Source: Acidobacteriota bacterium
GTDB taxonomy: Bacteria > Acidobacteriota > Vicinamibacteria > Vicinamibacterales > UBA2999
Direction: 5' to 3'
DNA: 64,000 bases
Assembly: GCA_021731165.1 (NCBI GenBank)
Contig: JAKFXY010000074.1
Location: forward strand, 2,861 to 66,860
Below are positions 3,909-39,132 of this stretch, in pieces (the stretch's first letter is position 1; every line of letters begins with the position of its first letter). Under the pieces are notes generated by a model. The model ran no database searches, had not been told where the DNA came from, and worked only from the letters and a program-made list of their open reading frames with translations. Position numbers and translations under genes: made by a program.

Positions 3909-4697
3909 TCAGAGCTTCAGGTACTCTCGCAGCCGCTTCGTCTGCGATCGGCTGACCGGGATCTCCGTCGCCTTCGCGTCCTTCATCCGAAGGATGTAGT
4001 TCCTGCTGAACCAAGGGACAATCTCCTTGATCTTGTTGATATTCACCAGATGCGAGCGGTGGACGCGCCAGAACACGTCCGGGTCGAGTCGCGCCTGCAA
4101 GTCGTCCAACGTCCGATAGTTGGAGGTGCCGGAAATCTGGCCTGTCACTATGTTAATCGACTCGTCGGCCACTGAGGCGTAGATGACCTCGTCGGCCTGC
4201 ACCAGCAGGAACCGCTCGCCCGTCTTGACGGCGACCTGGTCCCGCCGGACATTCCGGCTAGAAACCAACTTTGCAATTCTGTCGAGCTGGTCCTTGAGGT
4301 CAGCCTGCCCGCCGGCCGGCCCCGCGCTGAGGCGGCGGCGGGCCCGCTGGATGGCTTGATCGAGGCGACTGGCCTCGACCGGCTTCAGCAGATAGTCCAC
4401 CGCGTTGACCTCGAACGCCTCGATCGCGTGCTGGTCATAGGCGGTGACAAAGATGAGCCCCGGCGAGTCCTCTTCGCGGGCCAGCAGCCGCCGCGCCACC
4501 TCGAAGCCGGTCAGCCCAGGCATCTGGATGTCCAGGAACACGAGGTCCGGACCATGGCGCTCGACCACCGTCAAGGCCTCTATTCCGTTACCCGCCTGCG
4601 CGATGACCTCCACCTCGCCGAGTTGTTCCAGCTGATAGCAGAGCTCCTCGCGGGCCAGCTGCTCATCGTCGACGACGATGACGCGGAGGGGGCTCAT
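3909..4697 (-). CDS. LytR/AlgR-family response regulator (receiver + LytTR DNA-binding domain)
   Basis: Receiver motifs (VVDDE, FLDIQMPGLTG) and a C-terminal LytTR block (FWRVHRSHLVNINKIKEI). A 4-bp overlap with the upstream kinase gene suggests an operon. Confidence 0.85.
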   Translation of the reverse strand: MSPLRVIVVDDEQLAREELCYQLEQLGEVEVIAQAGNGIEALTVVERHGPDLVFLDIQMPGLTGFEVARRLLAREEDSPGLIFVTAYDQHAIEAFEVNAVDYLLKPVEASRLDQAIQRARRRLSAGPAGGQADLKDQLDRIAKLVSSRNVRRDQVAVKTGERFLLVQADEVIYASVADESINIVTGQISGTSNYRTLDDLQARLDPDVFWRVHRSHLVNINKIKEIVPWFSRNYILRMKDAKATEIPVSRSQTKRLREYLKL

Positions 4698-6025
4698 GCG
4701 GTGATCTGCGCCGCGGCCATGAGCTCGGGAATCTCAATCCTGGCAATCGTGCCGCGCCCGGGCTCGCTGTTCATTTTGAGTTGATACGCCGCGCCATAGA
4801 TGACGCGAAGCCGCTCCCTCACGTTGGTGAGGCCGATGCCGCCGGACATCGGCTGGTCGAGGCGATCCATCACGAATCCCATCCCGTCGTCCTCGACCTC
4901 GATGAGCGCGCGGCCGTGCTCACGCCAGCTGCGAATGACGATCGACCCGGTACCGACCTTGCGCGCGAACCCGTGCTTGATGCAGTTCTCCACGAGCGGC
5001 TGCAGGATCATGCTCGGGACGATGATGTCCAGCGTGTCGGCACCGATGTCTTTCCTGACCTGGAGCTTCGGGCCGAAGCGAACCACCTCGATGTCGAGGT
5101 ACTCATCGATCGACTCCAGCTCGTCTCGCAGGGTGACGAAGTGTTCTTGGCTGCGCAGCAGGCGCCGCAGAAGGCCGGACAGCTTCGTGATGAGCGTGCG
5201 GGCGGTATCGGGTTGTGAACGGATGAGCGAGGAAATCGACGTCAGCGTATTGAAAAGAAAGTGCGGATTGATCTGGCTCTTGAGCGCCTCAATCTTTGCC
5301 GCCAGCAGGAGCTTCTCCTGCTCCTGCAGGCGATGTTCGATGCGCGCGCTGTTCCAGATCTTGATGGGCGTGGCCACGGCCAGCACCGTGGCGAGGACCA
5401 CGAGCAGCACCATCCAGTGCGATGGGGAACCCAGGTAGAACAGCCGGCTGATGCCAAAGCGGATTCCGAGCGCCTGGCGCAGCAGCTCCAGGGCGATCGG
5501 GGCCAGCAGCAGGACGAACTGCCAGTTGGGCTCGAACTTCCGAATCATCTGCCAGACGTGTTTGGGAAGGTCCACGAACACGAAGGGCGTGAACTGCCAG
5601 ATGGCTTCCTTGGGGCACGCTTCACGCAGGCCGCCGCCGGCAAACCCGCATCCCACCGCGAAGGGGAGCGCGATGAACTCGCCCGCCACGAGCGCCGGTG
5701 CCGCCACCATGAGGCCGACCAGCGCCCCCGCGTACGGCCCCGCGATCAGTCCGGCGAGGAACGCCCCCTCGAGCGTGACATCGGCGGCCTGGTAGTTCAG
5801 CAGCAGCCTGGCCGTGACTCCCGCCATGAGCGGAATCCCGATCGACAGGGTGAAGACGAGCCGGTCCAGCCATCCACGTCGCTCGAAGATGAGGATGTGC
5901 CGGAACCGGCGATACCGCGCGAGCATCGTCGCCAGCACCGCGATGACGGCAAGCTTGACGATGAGCGTGGTCAGCAGGAACTGCGCGGCGGAGAGAAATC
6001 TGGCTTCCTGGAGCACCGCGCCCAT
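4694..6025 (-). CDS. LytS/YehU-type sensor histidine kinase
   Basis: Multi-TM N-terminus, an NPHFLFNTL H-box characteristic of the LytS-type His_kinase family, and a C-terminal HATPase (VEDDGMGF). Confidence 0.85.
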   Translation of the reverse strand: MGAVLQEARFLSAAQFLLTTLIVKLAVIAVLATMLARYRRFRHILIFERRGWLDRLVFTLSIGIPLMAGVTARLLLNYQAADVTLEGAFLAGLIAGPYAGALVGLMVAAPALVAGEFIALPFAVGCGFAGGGLREACPKEAIWQFTPFVFVDLPKHVWQMIRKFEPNWQFVLLLAPIALELLRQALGIRFGISRLFYLGSPSHWMVLLVVLATVLAVATPIKIWNSARIEHRLQEQEKLLLAAKIEALKSQINPHFLFNTLTSISSLIRSQPDTARTLITKLSGLLRRLLRSQEHFVTLRDELESIDEYLDIEVVRFGPKLQVRKDIGADTLDIIVPSMILQPLVENCIKHGFARKVGTGSIVIRSWREHGRALIEVEDDGMGFVMDRLDQPMSGGIGLTNVRERLRVIYGAAYQLKMNSEPGRGTIARIEIPELMAAAQITA

Positions 6026-6067
6026 TGTACCTACGGGCGCGAAATCCCAAGTCCCATGGACGGCTGT

Positions 6068-6628
6068 TTATTTGAGTCCCAACGGCTTGCCAGCCATGAG
6101 GAGGCGAATCGCCTCCTCATGGCGTCTGGCCTTCGTCTCCTCGCGCTTGGCCGACTCTATCCAGCCTATGTACTGTCTGCGATGTGAGGGCGCGAGCCCT
6201 TCGAAGTGCCGCCATGCCGCCGGATGCTTCCGTAGCGCTGCCCGGATGTGCGGTGGAGCGGTTGCGGGCGCTTGGAATCGTGGTGCTCGTGGCCCATGGC
6301 TGCGTCCCGTCGGTGCGCGGTCGATCCCACCTGGCTTCAACCTGCCACCGGACTTCAAGGCCGCGTAGCGCTTCCGATTGATAGCCGACCATCGGCTATC
6401 CGCCTTCCGCGGCGTGAACTTGCGCGCATAGCGCGAGTCATCGAGACGCTTGACCAGGCTATCTACCCAACCAAAGCACAGCGCTTCATCGAGAGCGTCC
6501 AGGTACGCAATCGATGCGACACCGGTGTGTAGCTTATGAAAGATGAGCCACACCTCGGACTCTGAGTCGTGGTGCTCGTCGAGCCACGTGCGCCACTGAT
6601 CAGCGGTCCGAGCGACAAAGGTCTTCAC
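6068..6628 (-). CDS. YdeI/OmpD-associated family protein (candidate last cassette)
   Basis: A GTG at 6628 with an AAGGA about 10 nt upstream gives VKTFVARTADQWRTWLDEHH, the usual N-terminus of this family. The C-terminal half (IGWIESAKREETKARR) also fits. Confidence 0.6.
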   Translation of the reverse strand: MKTFVARTADQWRTWLDEHHDSESEVWLIFHKLHTGVASIAYLDALDEALCFGWVDSLVKRLDDSRYARKFTPRKADSRWSAINRKRYAALKSGGRLKPGGIDRAPTGRSHGPRAPRFQAPATAPPHIRAALRKHPAAWRHFEGLAPSHRRQYIGWIESAKREETKARRHEEAIRLLMAGKPLGLK

Positions 6629-6697
6629 GGTTTGCGATCCTTGCCACGCTTGTCCTCCGAACGCGTCGCCTGTGTCGCGCGGTTCACAGCCACGTTC

Positions 6698-6757
6698 TAA
6701 CAACGGCGGCCGCGCCGGCTCCAGGCGCAATGAGGCAGCCGGCGCCGGATGTCAGCG
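6698..6757 (-). repeat. attC-like imperfect palindrome after DinB cassette (weak)
   Basis: Minus-strand GTTGTTA box at 6698-6704. The stem GCGCCGGCT / AGCCGGCGC has one unpaired G. No clear AAC box at the other end. Confidence 0.3.
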
Positions 6758-7237
6758 ACCTACGGCAGTCCGGATGCGCGCGAGGTGGTGCCAGCTGTGC
6801 CGAAGCGCGTGATCCTCGATGACGAACTGCGCGGTAACCGGGGCGCCGAAGCTCAGCGAGAACGGTGCCGCCCGATCCAGCTCTTCATCGCTGAAGGCGC
6901 GAACCGTTGCGGCCGCCTGGTGACTGTGCTTGCGCAACAAATCGAGCGCCTCCGCCTTCACGACCTTGGCGTGCTCGCGGGCGTGGCCGGCATTCAACTC
7001 GGCGACGACCTGCCAGGTCACATCGATGACCGCGTTCCCGCCGGCGACGGCGCGCGCCAGGTCGATCTCGATGGGGTAGACGAGTGCGACATGGTTCACG
7101 ATTTGGCCCACCGTCCGGCGGTCGGTGGGGGACGTTGGAGTTTCCCACTCAACGTCCGACAGCCCTTCCGCAAAGGCAGCCAGGCTGGCCGCACCGTCCT
7201 CGATGCGGGCGGCAAGTAATTCAGTGCGACGACTCAT
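6752..7237 (-). CDS. DinB-family (DinB_2 / MDMPI_N-like) metal-dependent protein
   Basis: 161 aa with conserved His positions (VNHVALV ... HALRHSWHHLARI), typical of the DinB four-helix bundle. Confidence 0.65.
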   Translation of the reverse strand: MSRRTELLAARIEDGAASLAAFAEGLSDVEWETPTSPTDRRTVGQIVNHVALVYPIEIDLARAVAGGNAVIDVTWQVVAELNAGHAREHAKVVKAEALDLLRKHSHQAAATVRAFSDEELDRAAPFSLSFGAPVTAQFVIEDHALRHSWHHLARIRTAVGR

Positions 7238-7315
7238 GCCATTGCTCCTCAGTGTCTGTGGCCGAATCTACTGCCAGCGTCGACGTGCTACATGACATGC
7301 CCCCGGATAAGTTGC

Positions 7316-7385
7316 GCCCAACGTCAGGCATCAGCCACGGCGTACCGACTCCAGATCGCGCCGTCGGCTGCAGGGCGTGTTCGGC
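7316..7385 (-). repeat. attC-like site A (after antitoxin/ParE cassette)
   Basis: Read on the minus strand: GCCGAAC ... GTTGGGC, where GTTGGGC is a perfect GTTRRRY. The imperfect stem has one extra C on the plus-strand 3' arm. It shares CGTCGGCTGCAG (7362-7373) with site B (8481-8492) at the same relative position. Confidence 0.55.
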
Positions 7386-7395
7386 GGCGCGTCGC

Positions 7396-7701
7396 CTATA
7401 AGATCGGCCCGGCGCCACGGCTCGAGTGCCACAACGCCAACACTTGAAGGACATCGCCAGTCACTCGGTAGTACAAGACGTAGCGAATTCGCGACAGCGT
7501 GACGCGTCGTACTCCGGCCAGCGTAGTCCTGCGTGCCCGCGTACCAAGTTCGGGTTGACCACGGAGCAGCTCGAGCGTGTGGTCGAGGTCCTCGAGCACA
7601 GCACCCGGTGCCCCCAGGCGATGCTGCGACCACCACGCAGCCGCCGCAAGGATGTGCTGCTGGGCCTGCTCGGTGATGTCGAGGCGTAGGGCACGGGTCA
7701 C
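7396..7701 (-). CDS. ParE/RelE-family type II toxin
   Basis: The C-terminal block RRVTLSRIRYVLYYRV...VLALWHSSRG is typical of ParE. The GTG start at 7701 overlaps the antitoxin stop (GTGA). Confidence 0.7.
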   Translation of the reverse strand: MTRALRLDITEQAQQHILAAAAWWSQHRLGAPGAVLEDLDHTLELLRGQPELGTRARRTTLAGVRRVTLSRIRYVLYYRVTGDVLQVLALWHSSRGAGPIL

Positions 7702-7919
7702 GCAAAGTGACGCAACCGCTCGCGCAGGGTCTCCCATGACACCACTTGGCCACGATCGGCCTGCGCGATGGCTTCAAGGAGCGCCCGTTCCTCGTCGACC
7801 GAAACTTCAAAGGTCTGCTCGTCGTCCCGCGCCACGACCGTGACGACCGAGCCCTCTGCCCACGGTTCGCCCTCGACGACGACCTTCCCTTCAACGATTC
7901 TGCCGGTGGCAACTCTCAT
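7698..7919 (-). CDS. putative antitoxin of the ParE module
   Basis: 73-aa acidic protein immediately upstream of, and translationally coupled to, the ParE-like gene. The family was not recognised beyond position and size. Confidence 0.5.
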   Translation of the reverse strand: MRVATGRIVEGKVVVEGEPWAEGSVVTVVARDDEQTFEVSVDEERALLEAIAQADRGQVVSWETLRERLRHFA

Positions 7920-7942
7920 GGATGGATCCTACACCCGGGGGA

Positions 7943-8008
7943 CCGGAACTGGCCCCGCGATAGCTCCTTGCGTTGATTCCGGGAGCTTCAGTCGGTCTGC
8001 GGTTCCTG
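7943..8008 (-). repeat. attC-like site C2 (after deleted DinB cassette)
   Basis: Plus strand: CCGGAAC ... GTTCCTG (boxes complementary at 6/7). Stem AGCTCC/GGAGCT plus imperfect outer pairing. The GTCGGTCTGCG next to the GTT box resembles GTCGGCTGCAG of sites A and B. The plus 3' arm is 2 nt longer. Confidence 0.45.
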
Positions 8009-8016
8009 TCCGCCTA

Positions 8017-8077
8017 GACAACGTCAGCGCTATCGCACACCGGCCGAGTGCTTCAATAACGCCTAGCTTTGTTGCGG
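8017..8077 (-). repeat. second, degenerate attC-like element overlapping the DinB pseudogene 3' end
   Basis: Minus strand: CCGCAAC ... CTGACGTTGTCT. It carries the 9-mer CAACGTCAG (plus, 8020-8028) also found in site A (7319-7327) and at 9699-9707. Stem pairing is poor. Confidence 0.3.
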
Positions 8078-8409
8078 AGCAAACTTGAACTCAAACCGCC
8101 CGCGTTCCTGGATCTGTTTCAGATGATGCCGCAAATGAACCAAGTAGTCTTCGACAAGAAAGCCCAAGCTGACCGCTGCACCCAAGCGTCTTGCTCGTAC
8201 CCAGGAAAGGAGCATTCTTTGGCCCGTTGAGCTCGGACGAATCGCTGGTGGTTATTGGCCGCCGAGTCAACCAGGTGACCAACGATTTCTTTAACGGACC
8301 ATACGTCAGGGCCGCGCTTCGAGGCCGCGACCGATTCATTGACCGTCCGGAGCTTCACCCCAGCCACGTCAATCACCCGGGTAAGTTCGTCGGCTAGTGA
8401 TTGAAGCAT
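8063..8409 (-). pseudogene. DinB-family gene with internal out-of-frame deletion
   Basis: The N-terminal frame (8409..) reads ...EIVGHLVDSAANNHQRFVRAQ...FPGYEQDAWV. The typical C-terminus LVEDYLVHLRHHLKQIQERG continues in another frame and ends at TAG 8063-8065. The roughly 60 aa normally found between these blocks are missing. Confidence 0.5.
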
Positions 8410-8431
8410 TGTGTTCGGAAGTGTGCGGCCA

Positions 8432-8505
8432 TATCAACGCTCGGCGCTCAGCCGCGAGCCGTCCGTCGTCGACCGCGGCTCGTCGGCTGCAGCGCCTTGT
8501 TAGAC
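8432..8505 (-). repeat. attC-like site B (after BrnT/BrnA cassette)
   Basis: Minus strand: GTCTAAC (perfect RYYYAAC) ... GTTGATA. Plus-strand arms are GGCGCTCAGCCGCGAGCC (8443-8460) and GGCTCG[T]CGGCTG[C]AGCGCC (8477-8496). They pair perfectly except for two extrahelical bases on the arm next to the R'' box. The brnA reading frame runs into the site. Confidence 0.6.
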
Positions 8506-8792
8506 CGCGTGTTGCCGATGGTCTCACGGGTCACACGGTCCGCCAGATACACCTTGAGCAAAGACTGGTACGGAACGTCACGCTTGTTCGCCAAGACCTT
8601 CAGATCGGACAAGAGCGCCGTCGGCAGTCGGAGCGAGATCGTCTCGGTCGAAGCCTTGAGATTCGGAAACACCACTTGGCGCGCGTTTGACCAGGTCACC
8701 ACGTCACCCGCATCGTGGGTTTCCCAGTATTCCCGCTCCGCATGCTCTGAGGCGAACGGCGGAACCACCTTAGCTGGCACTCGCTTGGCCAT
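8448..8792 (-). CDS. brnA: BrnA-family antitoxin (CopG/RHH-like)
   Basis: ...ISLRLPTALLSDLKVLANKRDVPYQSLLKVYLADRV matches the BrnA C-terminal RHH block. The ATG is preceded by GGAGGGG and overlaps the brnT 3' end. The C-terminal tail is encoded by the attC-like site. Confidence 0.7.
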   Translation of the reverse strand: MAKRVPAKVVPPFASEHAEREYWETHDAGDVVTWSNARQVVFPNLKASTETISLRLPTALLSDLKVLANKRDVPYQSLLKVYLADRVTRETIGNTRSNKALQPTSRGRRRTARG

Positions 8793-9099
8793 AACCCCTC
8801 CGCTCTCGCCGACTCATCGGCCTCACCGAGATCACCCGTAATAGCGAACCCCGAACAGTGAAGACCACTGTCAGCAGCCGCCCCGCGTCCGTTCGCCCGA
8901 ACGCGAACTGCCGGGATTCATTCTTGAACGGTGCCCCAGCTACCACGAGCGGGCGATTCAGAAAGACTTGCTCCGCTTCCGTCTGGCTGACCCGGTGACG
9001 CGTCCAGTTCTTCGACGCATTCCCCTCGTCCCATTGAAACCCCTCGATGGTCGGCAAGAACTCGGGACGAGATCCCACTGCAGGAGTATACGCCTGCAA
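8770..9099 (-). CDS. brnT: BrnT-family toxin (DUF497)
   Basis: FQWDEGNASKNWTRHRVSQTEAEQVF...VVFTVRGSLLRVISVRPMSRRER is the DUF497/BrnT signature. The start (TTG 9099 or a downstream GTG/TTG) is uncertain. Confidence 0.75.
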   Translation of the reverse strand: MQAYTPAVGSRPEFLPTIEGFQWDEGNASKNWTRHRVSQTEAEQVFLNRPLVVAGAPFKNESRQFAFGRTDAGRLLTVVFTVRGSLLRVISVRPMSRRERRGYGQASAS

Positions 9100-9150
9100 T
9101 ATACGCGACGCAACGAGTCGTAGCGACTCTGGAGTGCCGACCGATCAGCG

Positions 9151-9157
9151 GCCTAAC
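9151..9157 (-). other. attI-like core site GTTAGGC (minus strand)
   Basis: A perfect GTTRRRY heptamer lies between the intI remnant and the first cassette, about 50 nt upstream of brnT. Confidence 0.35.
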
Positions 9158-9200
9158 TACTATTCACCTGCAAGCGGCCGGCACGGGATTCGTCCCCGTA

Positions 9201-9224
9201 CGCTCGGTAATCCGGCACCGAGCG
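9201..9224. repeat. 24-nt hairpin, copy 1 (CGCTCGGTA-ATCCGGC-ACCGAGCG)
   Basis: 8-bp perfect stem CGCTCGGT/ACCGAGCG. Near-identical stem to the copy at 9309-9332. Confidence 0.6.
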
Positions 9225-9308
9225 CCCCGGTCATGACCCCATGTGCTTGATTCGGGGGGAGTTATAGATTCCTTGGCGGCAGCGCGTCAGCCAGGATATG
9301 CGCGTGGT

Positions 9309-9332
9309 CGCTCGGTAGCCGAATACCGAGCG
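9309..9332. repeat. 24-nt hairpin, copy 2 (CGCTCGGTA-GCCGAA-TACCGAGCG)
   Basis: Same stem as 9201-9224. It lies 17 nt downstream of the intI-remnant stop and could also act as its terminator. Confidence 0.6.
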
Positions 9333-9349
9333 GAAGAGCGGAACGATGC

Positions 9350-9612
9350 TCAGCCAAGCCCGTCAAAGGGACTGCGTACGCCCCGCCCACCTCGGTTGAG
9401 CACGTAGGTGTACACCATCGTCGTGCTGACGTCGCTGTGCCCCAGCAGTTCCTGAATCGTGCGGATGTCGCAACCGGCTTCGAGGAGGGGTGTCGCGAAT
9501 GAGTGTCTCAGGGTGTGACACGTCGCCGGCTTGGTCAGGCGGGCACGAAGTGCCGCATATGTATGGTGTGCCGCACCTGATCGAGGAGCTTCGGACGAAG
9601 AGGATCGGCCAT
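9350..9612 (-). pseudogene. intI: integron-integrase (IntI-type tyrosine recombinase) remnant with large internal deletion
   Basis: ATG 9612 gives [22 protein letters not shown], then a stop at 9535-9537. A different frame from about 9538 to 9350 reads [62 protein letters not shown]. Both ends match IntI N- and C-termini, and about 230 central codons are absent. Confidence 0.7.
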
Positions 9613-9822
9613 GCTGGGTCTAGGGCCGTTTCGCGAGCGAACACCGTGCCAGCGCCGCCGCGCCTGGATGACCGAATGAATCGCCAGATGGAGTCGTTCA
9701 ACGTCAGTACTTGTGCGATCCGCAGCCGCGCAGCCCATCGCGGAATCTTCCACGCCGAGGTATCGCGGAGTTCGCAGGGATAACTCACCGAGCGATGCTC
9801 CGACCTTCCGCTCTTGGGTTTA

Positions 9823-9850
9823 GGACTTGGGACTTGGGATCTGGGAATTG
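9823..9850 (+). repeat. 4 x 7-bp tandem repeat GGACTTG GGACTTG GGATCTG GGAATTG
   Basis: Read directly from the sequence. It ends 19 nt upstream of the nuoI ATG (9869). Confidence 0.7.
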
Positions 9851-9868
9851 ACCAGCTATGATCGAAGC

Positions 9869-10315
9869 ATGATTCGTCCGCTCCTCGTCGGCCTCGCCAC
9901 CACGTTCCGGCACATGTTCAGGAATAAGGTCTCGGTGAACTATCCGGATGAAAAGGTCCCGGTGTTTCCGAAGTACCGGGGCAAACAGGTGCTGATGCGT
10001 GACGAGAACGGGTTGGAGAAGTGCGTGGCGTGCGGTCTGTGCTCGGTGGCCTGTCCGGCCGACGCGATTTATCTCGAGGCCGCCGAGAACGACGGGACGG
10101 TCATGGCCGGCCCGCGGTACGCCAAGGTCTATCAGATTCACAAGACGCGGTGCATCTTCTGCGGCTACTGCGAGGAAGCATGTCCGGTCTCGGCCATTTT
10201 CATGGGGAAGGACTACGAGCTGGCCGTCTACAGCAAGGACGACTTCATCTGGGACAAGGCAGACTTGCTGGTCATGGCGCAGACAAACGCCAAGACCCCC
10301 GCGGCCACGCGCTAG
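9869..10315 (+). CDS. nuoI: NADH-quinone oxidoreductase subunit I-like 2x[4Fe-4S] protein
   Basis: MIRPLLVGLATTFRHMF...VNYPDEK N-terminus. Two CxxCxxCxxxCP motifs (CVACGLCSVACP, CIFCGYCEEACP). No other nuo genes in the window. Confidence 0.7.
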   Translation: MIRPLLVGLATTFRHMFRNKVSVNYPDEKVPVFPKYRGKQVLMRDENGLEKCVACGLCSVACPADAIYLEAAENDGTVMAGPRYAKVYQIHKTRCIFCGYCEEACPVSAIFMGKDYELAVYSKDDFIWDKADLLVMAQTNAKTPAATR

Positions 10316-10352
10316 TCGGCCCGACCGCCGAGCCCTACCGGCGCGAATCTGA

Positions 10353-12188
10353 ATGAAACCTTTTCTTGAAGCCCTTGGTGAGCGTGTTCTCGTCTGCGAC
10401 GGCGCGATGGGGACGATGCTCTATGCCAAGGGTGTGTTCATCAATCGCTGTTTCGACGCACTGAACCTGACCGACCCTGACCGTGTGGCGGAGGTCCACC
10501 AGGACTACATCCGCGCCGGCGCCGACGTCATCGAGACCAACACCTTTGGCGCCAACCGCGTGAAGCTGCGCGGCTTCGGCCTGGCTGACAAGCTCAGGGA
10601 CATCAACCTCGAGGGGGCACGGATCGCGAGGAATGCCGCGCGCGGCCGCGCCTACGTGGCGGGGGCCATCGGGCCGCTCGGCATTCGCATCGAGCCGTGG
10701 GGAAAAACAGGAAAAGACGAAGCGGAATCCTGGTTTCGCGAGCAGGCGCAGGCGCTGGTGGACGGCGGCGTCGATCTCTTCATCCTCGAGACGTTCCGCG
10801 ATCTGAACGAGATGGGCGCCGCCATCGCGGCCGTGCGCAGTGTGTGTGATCTGCCCATCGTGGCTCAGATGACGACCGAAGAGGATGGCAACAGTCTCGA
10901 CGGCACGGCCCCGGAGCAGTTCGCGCCCGCGCTCGTGCGGCTCGGTCCAGACGTCATCGGCCTGAACTGCAGCATCGGGCCCGCCCCGATGCTCGAGACC
11001 ATCGAGCGGATCCGTTCGCTCGCCGATGTGCCGCTGGCCGCGCAGCCCAACGCCGGCCGGCCGCGCGATATCGAGGGACGCAACATCTACCTGACGTCGC
11101 CGGAGTACATGGCGTCCTACGCGCGACGCTTCGTGGCCAGCGGAGTCCGCCTCGTTGGTGGGTGCTGTGGGACCACGCCGGAGCACATTCGTCAGATCAA
11201 GCTGGCAGTGACCAAGGCCGCGGCGACGGAGAAGCCCCGAGCGGCCGGTACCGCCGTGTCCCCGTCGGTCGCCGAACCGGCGGTGCCTTCCGTGCCGGTG
11301 CGGGAGCGCTCGCAGCTTGCGCGCGCGTTCAGCGAGCGGCGGTTCACGACGTCAATCGGCCTGCTGCCGCCCAAGGGGTATCGAGGCGACGAGGTCGTCG
11401 AGCAGGCGCGGATGCTCAAGGCCCATGGCGTGGATGCCGTGCACATCTCCGAGGGGCAGCGCGGCGCGCGGATGAGCGCACTGTCGCTTGCGGTGCTCAT
11501 CGAGCAGCGTGCGTCGATTGAAACGGTGCTCCATTACTCGTGCCGCGACCGCAGTCTCCTGGGGATGGAGTCCGACCTGCTCGGAGCGCACGCGATGGGA
11601 ATTCGCAACCTGGTGCTCGTCACCGGCGACGTACGGCCCGTCGGGGACTATCCGGATGCGACGGCAGTCTTCGACGTCGATTCCATCGGCTTGACGAACG
11701 TCGTGCGGCGGCTCAACCAGGGACTCGACATTGGCGGGCAGGGGATTGGCAGCCCGACTGCGTTCCACATCGGTGTCCAGGTGAATCCCGGCGCGGACGA
11801 TCTCGATAACGAAATCAGGCGGTTCGAGTACAAGGTTGAGGCTGGCGCGGAGTTCGTGGTGACCAGGCCGGTCTTTGACCTCGGGACGTTCGAGAGGATC
11901 TACCGGCGGCTCGAAGGTGCCGGATTGCCGGTCGTGGTGGGCCTGTGGCCCTTCGACAGCGTGCTGAACGCGGAGTTCATGGCCAACGAAGTGCCTGGAA
12001 TTTTCGTGCCCGACGGGGTGCTGGACCGCATGCGGAGCACTCGTGACGCGCGCGGTGCCGCCGCCGAGGGTGTGGCTATCGCGAAGGAGCTTGCCGTGGC
12101 CCTCAAGTGGACGGTTCAGGGGGTCCACATCGCGGCGCCCGCTGGCAGGATTGATGCTGCGCTCGAGGTACTGGCCGGTGTACGGTAG
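10353..12188 (+). CDS. bifunctional homocysteine S-methyltransferase / 5,10-methylenetetrahydrofolate reductase
   Basis: N-terminal Hcy-binding domain with the zinc Cys motif VGGCCGTTPEHI. The C-terminal ~290 aa are MTHFR-like (HYSCRDR..., VTGD). Confidence 0.8.
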   Translation: MKPFLEALGERVLVCDGAMGTMLYAKGVFINRCFDALNLTDPDRVAEVHQDYIRAGADVIETNTFGANRVKLRGFGLADKLRDINLEGARIARNAARGRAYVAGAIGPLGIRIEPWGKTGKDEAESWFREQAQALVDGGVDLFILETFRDLNEMGAAIAAVRSVCDLPIVAQMTTEEDGNSLDGTAPEQFAPALVRLGPDVIGLNCSIGPAPMLETIERIRSLADVPLAAQPNAGRPRDIEGRNIYLTSPEYMASYARRFVASGVRLVGGCCGTTPEHIRQIKLAVTKAAATEKPRAAGTAVSPSVAEPAVPSVPVRERSQLARAFSERRFTTSIGLLPPKGYRGDEVVEQARMLKAHGVDAVHISEGQRGARMSALSLAVLIEQRASIETVLHYSCRDRSLLGMESDLLGAHAMGIRNLVLVTGDVRPVGDYPDATAVFDVDSIGLTNVVRRLNQGLDIGGQGIGSPTAFHIGVQVNPGADDLDNEIRRFEYKVEAGAEFVVTRPVFDLGTFERIYRRLEGAGLPVVVGLWPFDSVLNAEFMANEVPGIFVPDGVLDRMRSTRDARGAAAEGVAIAKELAVALKWTVQGVHIAAPAGRIDAALEVLAGVR

Positions 12189-36731: not shown

Positions 36732-37841
36732 CTACGAGACCTTCACCCTATCGAGCGCCGCCATCTCCATCTGGACGACGGCGGAAGGGAGCTGGGCGTA
36801 GCCGAGCTCGGTGGCCTGCTTCTGCCCGTCCGTCAAGGCCCAACGCATGAAGTCCACCATGATCCGGCTGCTGGCCGCGTCCTTGGGTGCCTCGTAGAGA
36901 AGGATCCAGGTGAATGACGAGATGGGGTAGGCGCCGGCGCCAGGCGCGTTGGTGATCGAGACGCGGAAATCTGAGGGCATGCTGGCCGCCGCCCCCTCCG
37001 CCGCCTTCGTCACCGCATCCACCGAGGCCTTCACGAATTCACCGGCGAGATTCTGAACCGCGCCAAAGCTGATCTTGTTCTGGAGGGCGTAGATCAATTC
37101 GACGTAACCGATCGATCCGGGCGTCTGCGAGACCAGCCCCGCCACCCCCTCGTTGCCCTTGCCGCCCACGCCGGCCGGCCAGTTGACCGACGTGTTCACG
37201 CCGACCTTCTTCTTGAACGCAGGGGAGGTCTTCGAGAGGAAGTCCACGAAGATGTAGGTGGTCCCCGAGCCGTCGGACCTGTGCACCACCGTGATGTCAG
37301 TGGCCGGAAGCTTTACGCCGGGGTTGAGCTTCGCAATCGCCGGGTCGTCCCATGTCTTCACGGTGCCGAGGTAGATGTCGGCGATGAGCGAACCGCTGAA
37401 CTTCAGCTCGCCCTCGATTCCGGGCACGTTGTAAACCGGCACCACCGCGCCGAGCACCGCCGGGAGATGGAGGATCGGCCCTGGCGCGGATTTCATCTGC
37501 TCGTCGGTCATCGGGCCGTCGGTGGCCCCGAAGAAGACGGTCTGGTTCGTGAGCTGACGGATGCCTCCGCCCGATCCAATCGACTGGTAGTTGATCTGTA
37601 CTTCGGGATAAAGCTTGTTGTACTCGGAGAACCATTTCGAATAGATCGGATAGGGGAATGTCGCTCCCGCACCGTTGATCTGGACGTTGCCCGATGCGCT
37701 TGCTCCCGCCGCACCGGACGTGGACGCGGGCTCGGAGCTGTTGCCGCCACAGGCGGTGACACACACAACGACGATCGTGGCGCATAGAGAGCGAAGCGGC
37801 ATCTGAACCATGCTCTGAACGCTACCGAACGGGAATTTCAC
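36732..37841 (-). CDS. pstS: phosphate-binding lipoprotein PstS
   Basis: Lipobox VTAC|GG and the GAGATFPYPIYSKW phosphate-binding block. Start is GTG 37841 or ATG 37811. Confidence 0.9.
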   Translation of the reverse strand: MKFPFGSVQSMVQMPLRSLCATIVVVCVTACGGNSSEPASTSGAAGASASGNVQINGAGATFPYPIYSKWFSEYNKLYPEVQINYQSIGSGGGIRQLTNQTVFFGATDGPMTDEQMKSAPGPILHLPAVLGAVVPVYNVPGIEGELKFSGSLIADIYLGTVKTWDDPAIAKLNPGVKLPATDITVVHRSDGSGTTYIFVDFLSKTSPAFKKKVGVNTSVNWPAGVGGKGNEGVAGLVSQTPGSIGYVELIYALQNKISFGAVQNLAGEFVKASVDAVTKAAEGAAASMPSDFRVSITNAPGAGAYPISSFTWILLYEAPKDAASSRIMVDFMRWALTDGQKQATELGYAQLPSAVVQMEMAALDRVKVS

Positions 37842-37854
37842 AACCGTTTCCGCG

Positions 37855-38457: not shown

Positions 38458-38493
38458 TCGTTCGATTCACCCTCTTTCCAAGGAGCACTATTC

Positions 38494-39132
38494 ATGCCTC
38501 GTCCCCATTTCTTCATCCCGGCCACGTTCGTCATGCTGCTGGCGCTGTTGCCTTCCCCCGCGCGTGCCCAGGTCGGCACGGGCATCCTCGACGCCAACAC
38601 GGTGGCCGAAGCGCAGCTGGCCGGGCTGCCGGGCATGACGCCGGCAGTCGCCAAGGCACTGGTAGCCGCCCGCCCCTTCGGGAGCGCGGTGGAACTCAAC
38701 ACGTTCCTGACGGGCCAGAAGCTGACCACCGAACAGATCGCGGCGTTCTACGGCAAGGCCTTCGTGCACGTGAATCTCAACACCGGCACGCGCGAGGACA
38801 TCCTGCTCATCCCCGGTGCCGGCAACCGCATGGCGCGCGAGTTCGCGGAGTACCGCCCGTGGAAGACCTGGGCGCAATTCGACAAGGAGATCAGCAAGTA
38901 CGTGGGCCAGCCGGAAACCGACCGGCTCAAGGGCTACGTGTTCATCCCGGTGAACCTGAACACGGCGAGCGACCAGGACATCCTGAGCATTCCTGGCGCC
39001 GGCGCCCGGATGGTGCGGGAGTTCAAGGAGTACCGCCCCTGGAAGACGAAGGAGCAGTTCGAGCGCGAGATCGGCAAGTACGTCGGCGCGAAAGAGGTGG
39101 CCCGCCTCTGGCGCTACGTCGTCATTGAGTAG
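38494..39132 (+). CDS. secreted helix-hairpin-helix (ComEA-like) repeat protein
   Basis: Signal peptide and three HhH-like units (LAGLPGMT, LLIPGAGNRM, LSIPGAGARM). The last two sit in a 60-aa tandem duplication. Confidence 0.55.
   Translation: MPRPHFFIPATFVMLLALLPSPARAQVGTGILDANTVAEAQLAGLPGMTPAVAKALVAARPFGSAVELNTFLTGQKLTTEQIAAFYGKAFVHVNLNTGTREDILLIPGAGNRMAREFAEYRPWKTWAQFDKEISKYVGQPETDRLKGYVFIPVNLNTASDQDILSIPGAGARMVREFKEYRPWKTKEQFEREIGKYVGAKEVARLWRYVVIE
38770..39129 (+). repeat. intragenic tandem duplication, 2 x 180 nt (60 aa)
   Basis: VNLNTGTREDILLIPGAGNRMAREFAEYRPWKTWAQFDKEISKYVG... versus VNLNTASDQDILSIPGAGARMVREFKEYRPWKTKEQFEREIGKYVG... Confidence 0.8.

Follow-up and report, generated by a model that had tools for sequence, protein, structure and literature searches.

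The two remaining ends of an integron-integrase gene at the head of a small cassette array in a Vicinamibacterales genome

The locus is part of the MAG GCA_021731165.1 of a soil Vicinamibacterales bacterium (Acidobacteriota), which comprises 3.0 Mb in 161 contigs and is 86.7% complete. The analyzed DNA, referred to as the window, is a stretch of 64,000 nucleotides of the 66.9-kb contig JAKFXY010000074.1. Between positions 9350 and 9612 it carries the remnant of an integron-integrase gene (intI), which stands at the head of a small array of about five cassettes pointing in the same direction; two attC sites of this array are firm. The remnant, every cassette ORF and both attC sites are located on the minus strand, and the array lies below position 9350 (Table 1). 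The search of the genome with the integron-integrase profile TIGR02249 revealed no other IntI match on this contig.

Table 1. Features of the inserted DNA in the window
Feature	Position	Strand	Evidence
Right end of the insertion, upstream of the remnant	9613..9812	-	contains a 124-nt indel polymorphism (9630-9753)
intI 5′ remnant, start and 21 codons	9547..9612	-	equivalent to residues 1-27 of the intact paralogue
Deletion junction	9546..9548	-	codon-by-codon alignment to six intact intI genes
Out-of-frame end of the N-frame (VPA) with its early stop TGA (9537-9535)	9535..9546	-	translation
intI 3′ remnant, 65 codons and stop	9350..9547	-	TIGR02249; identity to the paralogue
attI-like region	9150..9343	-	twin hairpins; GTTAGGC core 9157-9151
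Cassette 1: BrnT (8770-9099) and BrnA/CopG antitoxin (8448-8792)	8432..9156	-	PF04365 E 1.4e-21; PF12441 E 4.2e-26
attC closing cassette 1	8432-8505	-	model R1 79.6 bits, E 5e-18; site in model seed
Cassettes 2 and 3: frameshifted DinB-type gene; antitoxin (7698-7919) and ParE toxin (7396-7737)	7386..8431	-	DinB_2 partial; ParE_toxin E 2.3e-09
attC closing the ParDE-like cassette, GCCGAAC...GTTGGGC	7316..7385	-	model R1 61.1 bits, E 2.9e-13; site in model seed
Cassettes 4 and 5: DinB (6752-7237), YdeI/OmdA (6068-6730)	6057..7315	-	DinB_2 E 1.7e-08; OmdA E 4.5e-20; left limit set by homology of the flank to relatives

The array and the remnant are flanked by the gene of a LytS-type histidine kinase (lytS, 4694-6025) and by nuoI (9869-10315). 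In 79 of 80 species representatives, most of them labeled Vicinamibacterales, Vicinamibacteria or Acidobacteriota and a few carrying other labels, these genes face each other head to head across a gap of 7-312 nt, and the same arrangement is found at 28 of 29 loci of relatives. Neither an IntI match nor an attC site was detected between lytS and nuoI in those related species. In the window, the two genes are separated by 3,843 nt. The homology of the flanks with the relatives ends at about 6050, just past cassettes 4 and 5, and resumes at 9820-9857. The empty site in 79 related species shows that this lineage acquired the integron as a whole; the entire unit of 3.8 kb that separates lytS from nuoI is an insertion specific to this lineage. 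The ancestral spacer contains inverted heptamers, TCCCAAG/TCCCAAC on the lytS side and CTTGGGA/GTTGGGA on the nuoI side, and these sets now flank the inserted DNA (window 6041-6056 and 9813-9850; L047:1460-1540 in a relative). Since GTTGGGA resembles the GTTRRRY core, the spacer might be a secondary integration site, or the repeats might be regulator sites.

For the attC sites, the strict search (RYYYAAC...GTTRRRY with a folding filter) returned no site, because the real sites depart from the strict boxes, and motif search, alignment and a covariance model were used instead. The motif search identified two sites in the window and four on contig C119 of the same genome, with the consensus GTCTAACAAGCGCTTGCAGCCG...CGGCTGAAGCGC..GTTAGAC. 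The aligned sites fold into a bulged hairpin of 22 pairs, 8 of which show compensatory changes, with two unpaired bases on the 5′ arm. The covariance model R1, built from these six sites, detected nine sites outside its seed in the genome (three on C119, three on C14, one on C89 and two on C146) and dozens of sites next to the IntI genes of relatives. Elsewhere in the 64-kb window it found nothing significant, and in 553 kb of lytS loci from the 80 species it found nothing. Two further candidates in the array, a degenerate one at about 8020-8082 and a divergent hairpin at about 6698-6757, scored at most 9 bits. The DinB-type gene of the second cassette is split over two frames, with its N-terminal part at 8119-8409 and its C-terminal part in the ORF 8063-8215, and is the second damaged gene of the island. 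In the last codons of the YdeI/OmdA gene, a perfect palindrome of 15+15 nt (GCCATGAGGAGGCGA T TCGCCTCCTCATGGC) occupies 6093-6123. A GTTGGGA heptamer (6074-6080) lies 12 nt past this palindrome, near the left end of the insertion.

The region between the remnant and the first cassette has the appearance of an attI site. It contains twin hairpins of the form GCTCGGTA-N6-TACCGAGC at 9309-9332 and 9201-9224, and its GTTAGGC core is situated about 195 nt past the stop codon of the remnant, with the presumed crossover G↓TT between 9157 and 9156. Searches of positions 5000-11000 against Rfam and for tRNA and tmRNA genes gave chance-level matches only and no tRNA.

The remnant itself consists of two pieces that are read in different frames. 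The ATG at 9612 opens a frame of 25 residues, which is ended by the TGA at 9537-9535 and which comprises 22 IntI N-terminal codons followed by the three junk codons VPA. The second frame, from 9538, encodes 62 residues, starts with LTKPATCH and ends with the stop codon at 9352-9350. Homology to the IntI C-terminus begins three codons (RAR) before LTK, at 9547, and the segment 9547-9350 represents the final 65 codons of IntI, shifted by one base against the frame of the N-terminal part. Both frames had been recognized in the preliminary description of this DNA, the first as an IntI N-terminus and the second as a segment with the HxxR motif, the catalytic Tyr and an IntI-like tail, and their coordinates and translations proved to be exact.

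The C-terminal part matches TIGR02249 over positions 256-315 of 315 (E 1.9e-31, 109.6 bits), and the match reaches the end of the profile, including the IntI-like tail. The IntI equivalog model NF011946 scores 87.7 bits, XerD 68 bits and XerC 67.9 bits; Pfam reports only the generic Phage_integrase domain. The N-terminal part of 25 aa gave no match in the HMM libraries, for which it is too short, and it was therefore compared directly with intact IntI proteins of relatives. A stretch of 17 residues is identical at 14 positions to the IntI N-termini encoded at G057:C72 and G030:C5, with BLAST E values of 8e-13 and 4e-12 in a set of ten intact IntI sequences. On the DNA level, the first ten bases of the remnant, ATGGCCGATC, are identical to the start of an intact paralogue in the same genome. 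The two genes are colinear at 26 of 33 nt in the LLD..VR region (E 0.005) and are 78% identical in a stretch of 161 nt in the 3′ part (E 2e-33). Both pieces are colinear with IntI, and neither contains a further stop or frameshift. The C-terminal part has kept HxxR, the second (GH) His and the catalytic Tyr of MVYTYV. Compared with 29 intact family members, the retained pieces are altered at 2 of 41 strongly conserved columns, in both cases at an invariant His (H283P and H311Y in the numbering of the paralogue). The curated TIGR02249 cut-off of 265 bits is reached neither by the C-terminal part nor by both parts read through the junction (115.7 bits); TIGR02249 is the best-scoring family for the remnant by about 40 bits.

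These results bear on the possibility that the fragments stem from a non-integron tyrosine recombinase, be it a phage integrase or XerC/D. All tyrosine recombinases have the C-terminal catalytic region in common, and the Xer models match it at E 1e-19. Such an origin is, however, extremely improbable: the integron-integrase model exceeds any Xer model by about 40 bits and is aligned to the profile end, the N-terminal part matches IntI N-termini, and the attC array is adjacent and co-oriented, as it is where relatives have an intact IntI gene. Descent from an IntI gene agrees with the closer match of each terminus to IntI than to other recombinases and with the neighboring attI/attC array. The fragment-by-fragment comparison proposed in the preliminary description thus ended in favor of IntI for each piece, and best matches to non-integron recombinases, which it had named as contrary evidence, were not seen. 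Profile and protein comparisons confirm that both fragments are integron-integrase ends rather than Xer or phage-integrase ends. The full catalytic set of the tyrosine recombinases (Arg I, Lys, His II, Arg II, His/Trp III, Tyr) is not present, and the IntI-specific domain between patches II and III is absent from the remnant.

The deletion can be placed almost to the base. The homology of the N-frame stops at TTC (9549-9547), a Phe codon in the position of the Tyr of RHY, and that of the C-frame opens with CGT GCC CGC CTG ACC AAG (RARLTK, from 9547), which corresponds to RAGLTK. The codons TTC and CGT (9547-9545) have base 9547 in common, and the overlap at the junction is at most 1 nt. The deletion and its site had been proposed beforehand and were borne out, with one correction: because the homology of the C-frame extends three codons further upstream, the junction is moved from 9535-9545 to 9548-9546. 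Missing are residues 28-263 of the paralogue, corresponding to 236 codons plus 1 nt or about 709 nt, which is about 70% of the gene (some 236 of about 330 codons). The loss of 236 codons and one base explains the frame shift, in agreement with the earlier estimate of about 230 missing central codons and with the claim that the deletion is out of frame. The deleted stretch includes Arg I (GLRLLE), the Lys of the beta2-beta3 hairpin (GKGGKDR) and the IntI-specific domain, which occupies approximately profile positions 190-250 of 315, the remnant resuming at 242-256; the absence of the first catalytic Arg and of the IntI-specific insertion had been anticipated correctly. The IntI-specific domain grips folded attC sites by binding their extrahelical bases. 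A programmed frameshift or an alternative genetic code was rejected as an explanation, since about 236 codons are physically absent.

The locus is very probably a dead integron-integrase gene, that is, an intI pseudogene. The internal deletion, perhaps in a single event, removed the central part of the gene and shifted the frame. Translation from the preserved start ends after 25 residues, and with Arg I, the hairpin Lys and the IntI-specific domain missing, this locus cannot give rise to a recombinase. The array would thereby be left without an integrase of its own and would be static in cis.

The preliminary description spoke of one internal deletion. The two clean, colinear ends agree with this, and a single event would be the most economical reading. 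No intact orthologue closer than 80-84% in the C-terminal part was found in 193 other family genomes; these best identities are no better than that of the same-genome paralogue. None of the intI remnants of relatives is syntenic with that of the window. A stepwise decay, in which at least two successive deletions, or a deletion after a frameshift, gave the present junction, is possible though not likely. In its favor, the surroundings of the remnant are still losing DNA: a 124-nt indel just upstream of the remnant is polymorphic in a sister population, the DinB cassette is damaged internally, a 172-nt deletion separates two strains at the attI-like copy of the polA locus, and relatives show all stages from single frameshifts to short C-terminal stubs. 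However, the sequence requires no second event, and the clean parts abut with an overlap of no more than 1 nt. One deletion would be the simplest history, and the loss may not be very old.

The reality of the deletion was assessed in a second assembly. The sister assembly GCA_040079955.1 was found by exact-protein look-up of the neighboring BrnA. Its contig JBEBJJ010000077.1 matches the window from 9629 to 5448 at 99.83%, with zero differences in 9350-9612; elsewhere it shows six SNPs and two indels, an extra base near 9334 and the absence of window positions 9630-9753. The order of the cassettes is the same, as expected for a static array. Contig ends of the window's assembly overlap by exactly 127 nt (91 of 322 ends have such a partner), and those of GCA_040079955.1 by 77 nt. 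This difference in k shows that the two assemblies are separate. A Logan contig from run SRR10388232 reproduces 9179-8067, spanning cassettes 1-2; an exact-match scan of JGI metagenome contigs did not find the deletion junction. An assembly artifact would mean that a full-length intI is present here and that its two ends were collapsed or mis-joined. The fragmentation and incompleteness of the MAG and the location of the other intI copy at a contig break speak for it. It is nevertheless very improbable, since the remnant lies inside a 66.9-kb contig, the identity to the other copy is only 78%, so that no long k-mer could bridge both, and a second assembly with another k-mer size and with SNPs and indels nearby has the same junction. 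At 78% identity, the remnant is a diverged copy and not a mis-join of the other intI. The deletion is taken as real: the artifact that the preliminary description had admitted as a way to be wrong very probably does not apply, as the remnant recurs base for base.

The 124-nt stretch 9630-9753 begins 18 nt upstream of the ATG of the remnant. It is absent from JBEBJJ010000077.1 and present in JBEBJJ010000290.1 (L208) of the same sister assembly. The 77-nt overlaps around it look bubble-like, and both alleles may exist in the sister population. No repeats of the segment were found elsewhere in the genome.

The attI-like region is a module with three copies in the chromosome, which lie at unrelated loci and follow the intI remnant, pepP and polA, respectively. 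The pepP copy (G000:C97:7940-8131, L195) is 94% identical over 195 nt and starts 48 nt past the pepP stop codon. The polA copy on contig C54 (G000:C54:23-68, L200) comprises the last 46 nt of the module; its counterpart in the sister assembly (L209:7526-7680) comprises 152 nt, and C54 carries the 172-nt deletion relative to it. The module ends with ...GAATAGTAG↓TTAGGCC. In every copy the homology ends exactly at G↓TT, and a different co-oriented gene then follows. At the other side, the homology among the copies starts 7 nt after the stop codon of the remnant. Debris of intI is found only at the copy in the window; the pepP and polA copies are without intI coding sequence. The module was not found in the 193 other family genomes, and beside the intact intI only an 11-nt chance-level match was detected. 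A scan of JGI metagenome contigs did not find the attI-like core, and the exact look-up of the pepP protein gave no match. The module copies are either three paralogous platforms with unequal loss of intI or a copied docking module. A distributed integron, in which integrase-less landing pads, copied or kept by selection, are served in trans by one integrase from another locus, is a scheme that we regard as unlikely.

An IntI match is present in 22 of 36 sampled family genomes, and a match to the C-terminal part in 102 of 194. Among 25 C-terminal matches of relatives that lie in short frames, six genes are full length with frameshifts only, two show two-ended internal deletions and 17 have only the C-terminal part; these proportions are biased because the copies were selected by a C-terminal query. 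Independent two-ended remnants are found at G003:C51:22657-23017 (L040), with residues 4-34 and 246-329, and at G195:C2 (L097), with approximately residues 1-181 and 239-342.

The survey raises the question of whether the ends are kept by selection, either because the intI promoter and the 5′ end drive read-through into the cassettes or because the 3′ end carries a cassette promoter or part of attI. The prevalence of C-terminal stubs in relatives (17 of the 25 surveyed) points in this direction, as do an unbiased HMM scan, which found more 5′-truncated than 3′-truncated intI copies, and the conservation of 39 of 41 columns in the retained parts. Selection on the ends is still quite improbable. 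Two further copies of the module in the genome have no intI coding sequence upstream, which shows that the 3′ coding end of intI is not needed for the module. Moreover, the allele of the sister population deletes 124 nt just upstream of the ATG, no promoter-like site is present in the remnant (a promoter and terminator scan of 5900-9900 gave nothing in or upstream of it), and the 25 copies were picked by a C-terminal query.

The TIGR02249 search revealed two more intI pieces, both at contig ends: one on C43 (profile positions 1-250, 303.7 bits) and one on C119 (210-315). Joined by an exact 127-nt overlap, they form one open ORF of 334 codons, the product of which scores 438.2 bits over the whole profile, above the cut-off of 265. 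This second intI is apparently intact, as judged from the overlap of two contig ends rather than from one contig. It is assumed that the 6.4-kb contig C119 belongs to this genome; the binning is supported by the recurrence of its cassettes in the sister MAG. The array on C119 contains seven attC sites of the same family as the two in the window, and intI and the array are co-oriented, as in the window. A GTTAGAC motif about 190 nt after the intI stop codon is followed by the first cassette and its attC, and this spacing, which matches that of the attI-like region in the window, indicates that intI and the cassettes are co-oriented. In this MAG and in GCA_040079955.1 and GCA_040081675.1 (L210, L211), contigs break between or beside the intact intI and the first cassette. 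The shared breaks may reflect variable content at the attI of the intact integron in the population. A third intI vestige is located at G000:C14:34287-34421. It covers 45 residues, equivalent to residues 231-275, and behind it, in the same orientation, lie three attC sites of the family found in the window (C14:35210-35273, 37749-37843 and 38464-38540).

The presence of the second integron qualifies the claim that the array can no longer be rearranged in cis, which is literally right and yet incomplete, as an apparently intact intI with the same attC family exists elsewhere in the genome. Integron integrases recombine diverse attC sites. Since both arrays use attC sites of a single family, it is plausible that the cassettes of the window could still be excised in trans by the IntI encoded on C43/C119. 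The attI-like regions of the window and of the intact integron are unrelated in sequence, which makes an insertion at the attI-like site of the window by the other IntI doubtful.

Dead integrases beside surviving arrays are well documented, and the remnant is an ordinary genomic fossil. About one third of intI genes are pseudogenes, including some with major deletions (Nemergut 2008, PMC2426708), and two or more intI genes occur in over one fifth of the integron-bearing lineages, in some cases a live copy together with a dead one from a different clade (PMC2426708). The locus resembles these pseudo-integrons in its major deletion and frameshift, in the coexistence of a dead and a functional copy of different IntI lineages in one genome, and in a decay that appears recent, the retained parts being still well conserved (PMC2426708). 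It differs in the extent of the lesion, as about 70% of the gene is lost here, more than in a point lesion; the survey covers six phyla, and Acidobacteria do not occur in its text (PMC2426708). Chromosomal attC sites of Acidobacteria have been used for a taxon-specific model (PMC8352920). The literature search on integrons in Vicinamibacterales found little.

An intI pseudogene was reported near 15 of 279 CALIN, which are clusters of attC sites lacking an integron integrase (Cury 2016, PMC4889954). Like these, the window has no more than five cassettes, no working integrase adjacent and intI debris at less than 10 kb, and a complete integron of the same genome may act in trans (PMC4889954). 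A difference is that only two inter-cassette sites of the array are firm attC sites. The two sites (8432-8505 and 7316-7385) lie within 4 kb of each other, no functional intI belongs to the cluster, and the attC nearest to the pseudogene is 845 nt away, well within 10 kb. The cross-talk between CALIN and complete integrons has been discussed by Cury et al. (PMC4889954). Their pseudogene screen is keyed on the IntI-specific domain, which is deleted here, and would probably miss the remnant; it relies on intI_Cterm matches that cover more than 50% of the profile, a coverage that would probably not be attained here.

On its own, the remnant carries little weight; it is a clean, well-bounded intI fossil in Vicinamibacterales. 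It yields an exact deletion junction together with an empty site in 79 related species, and in the sister population small deletions are still eroding the integron platform. The coexistence of a live integron and a dead one that share an attC family within one genome may be useful for studying how chromosomal integrons die or persist, and the three-locus attI-like module is possibly useful for studies of the persistence of chromosomal integrons.

The orientation of the locus corresponds to that of the inverted integrons, of which the integron of Treponema denticola is an example. The inverted intI genes, co-oriented with their cassettes, form a sub-clade of soil and freshwater IntI (PMC8352920). 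As in these, intI and the attC top strands of the window run in the same direction, and the array follows the 3′ end of intI; the integrase of the window, however, is dead. Class 2 intI2, which has an internal stop codon (cited in PMC2426708), is likewise a naturally inactive integrase; it heads a stable array on which an integrase can act in trans. However, intI2 is full length and can be rescued by suppressing one stop codon, in contrast to the remnant, which is without most of the protein. Within the family, most loci are co-oriented with attC downstream (L012-L015, L019, L020, L024, L028, L039 and L075), and the classical layout, with attC upstream on the opposite strand, is found at L016 (G005:C36) and L017 (G012:C16).
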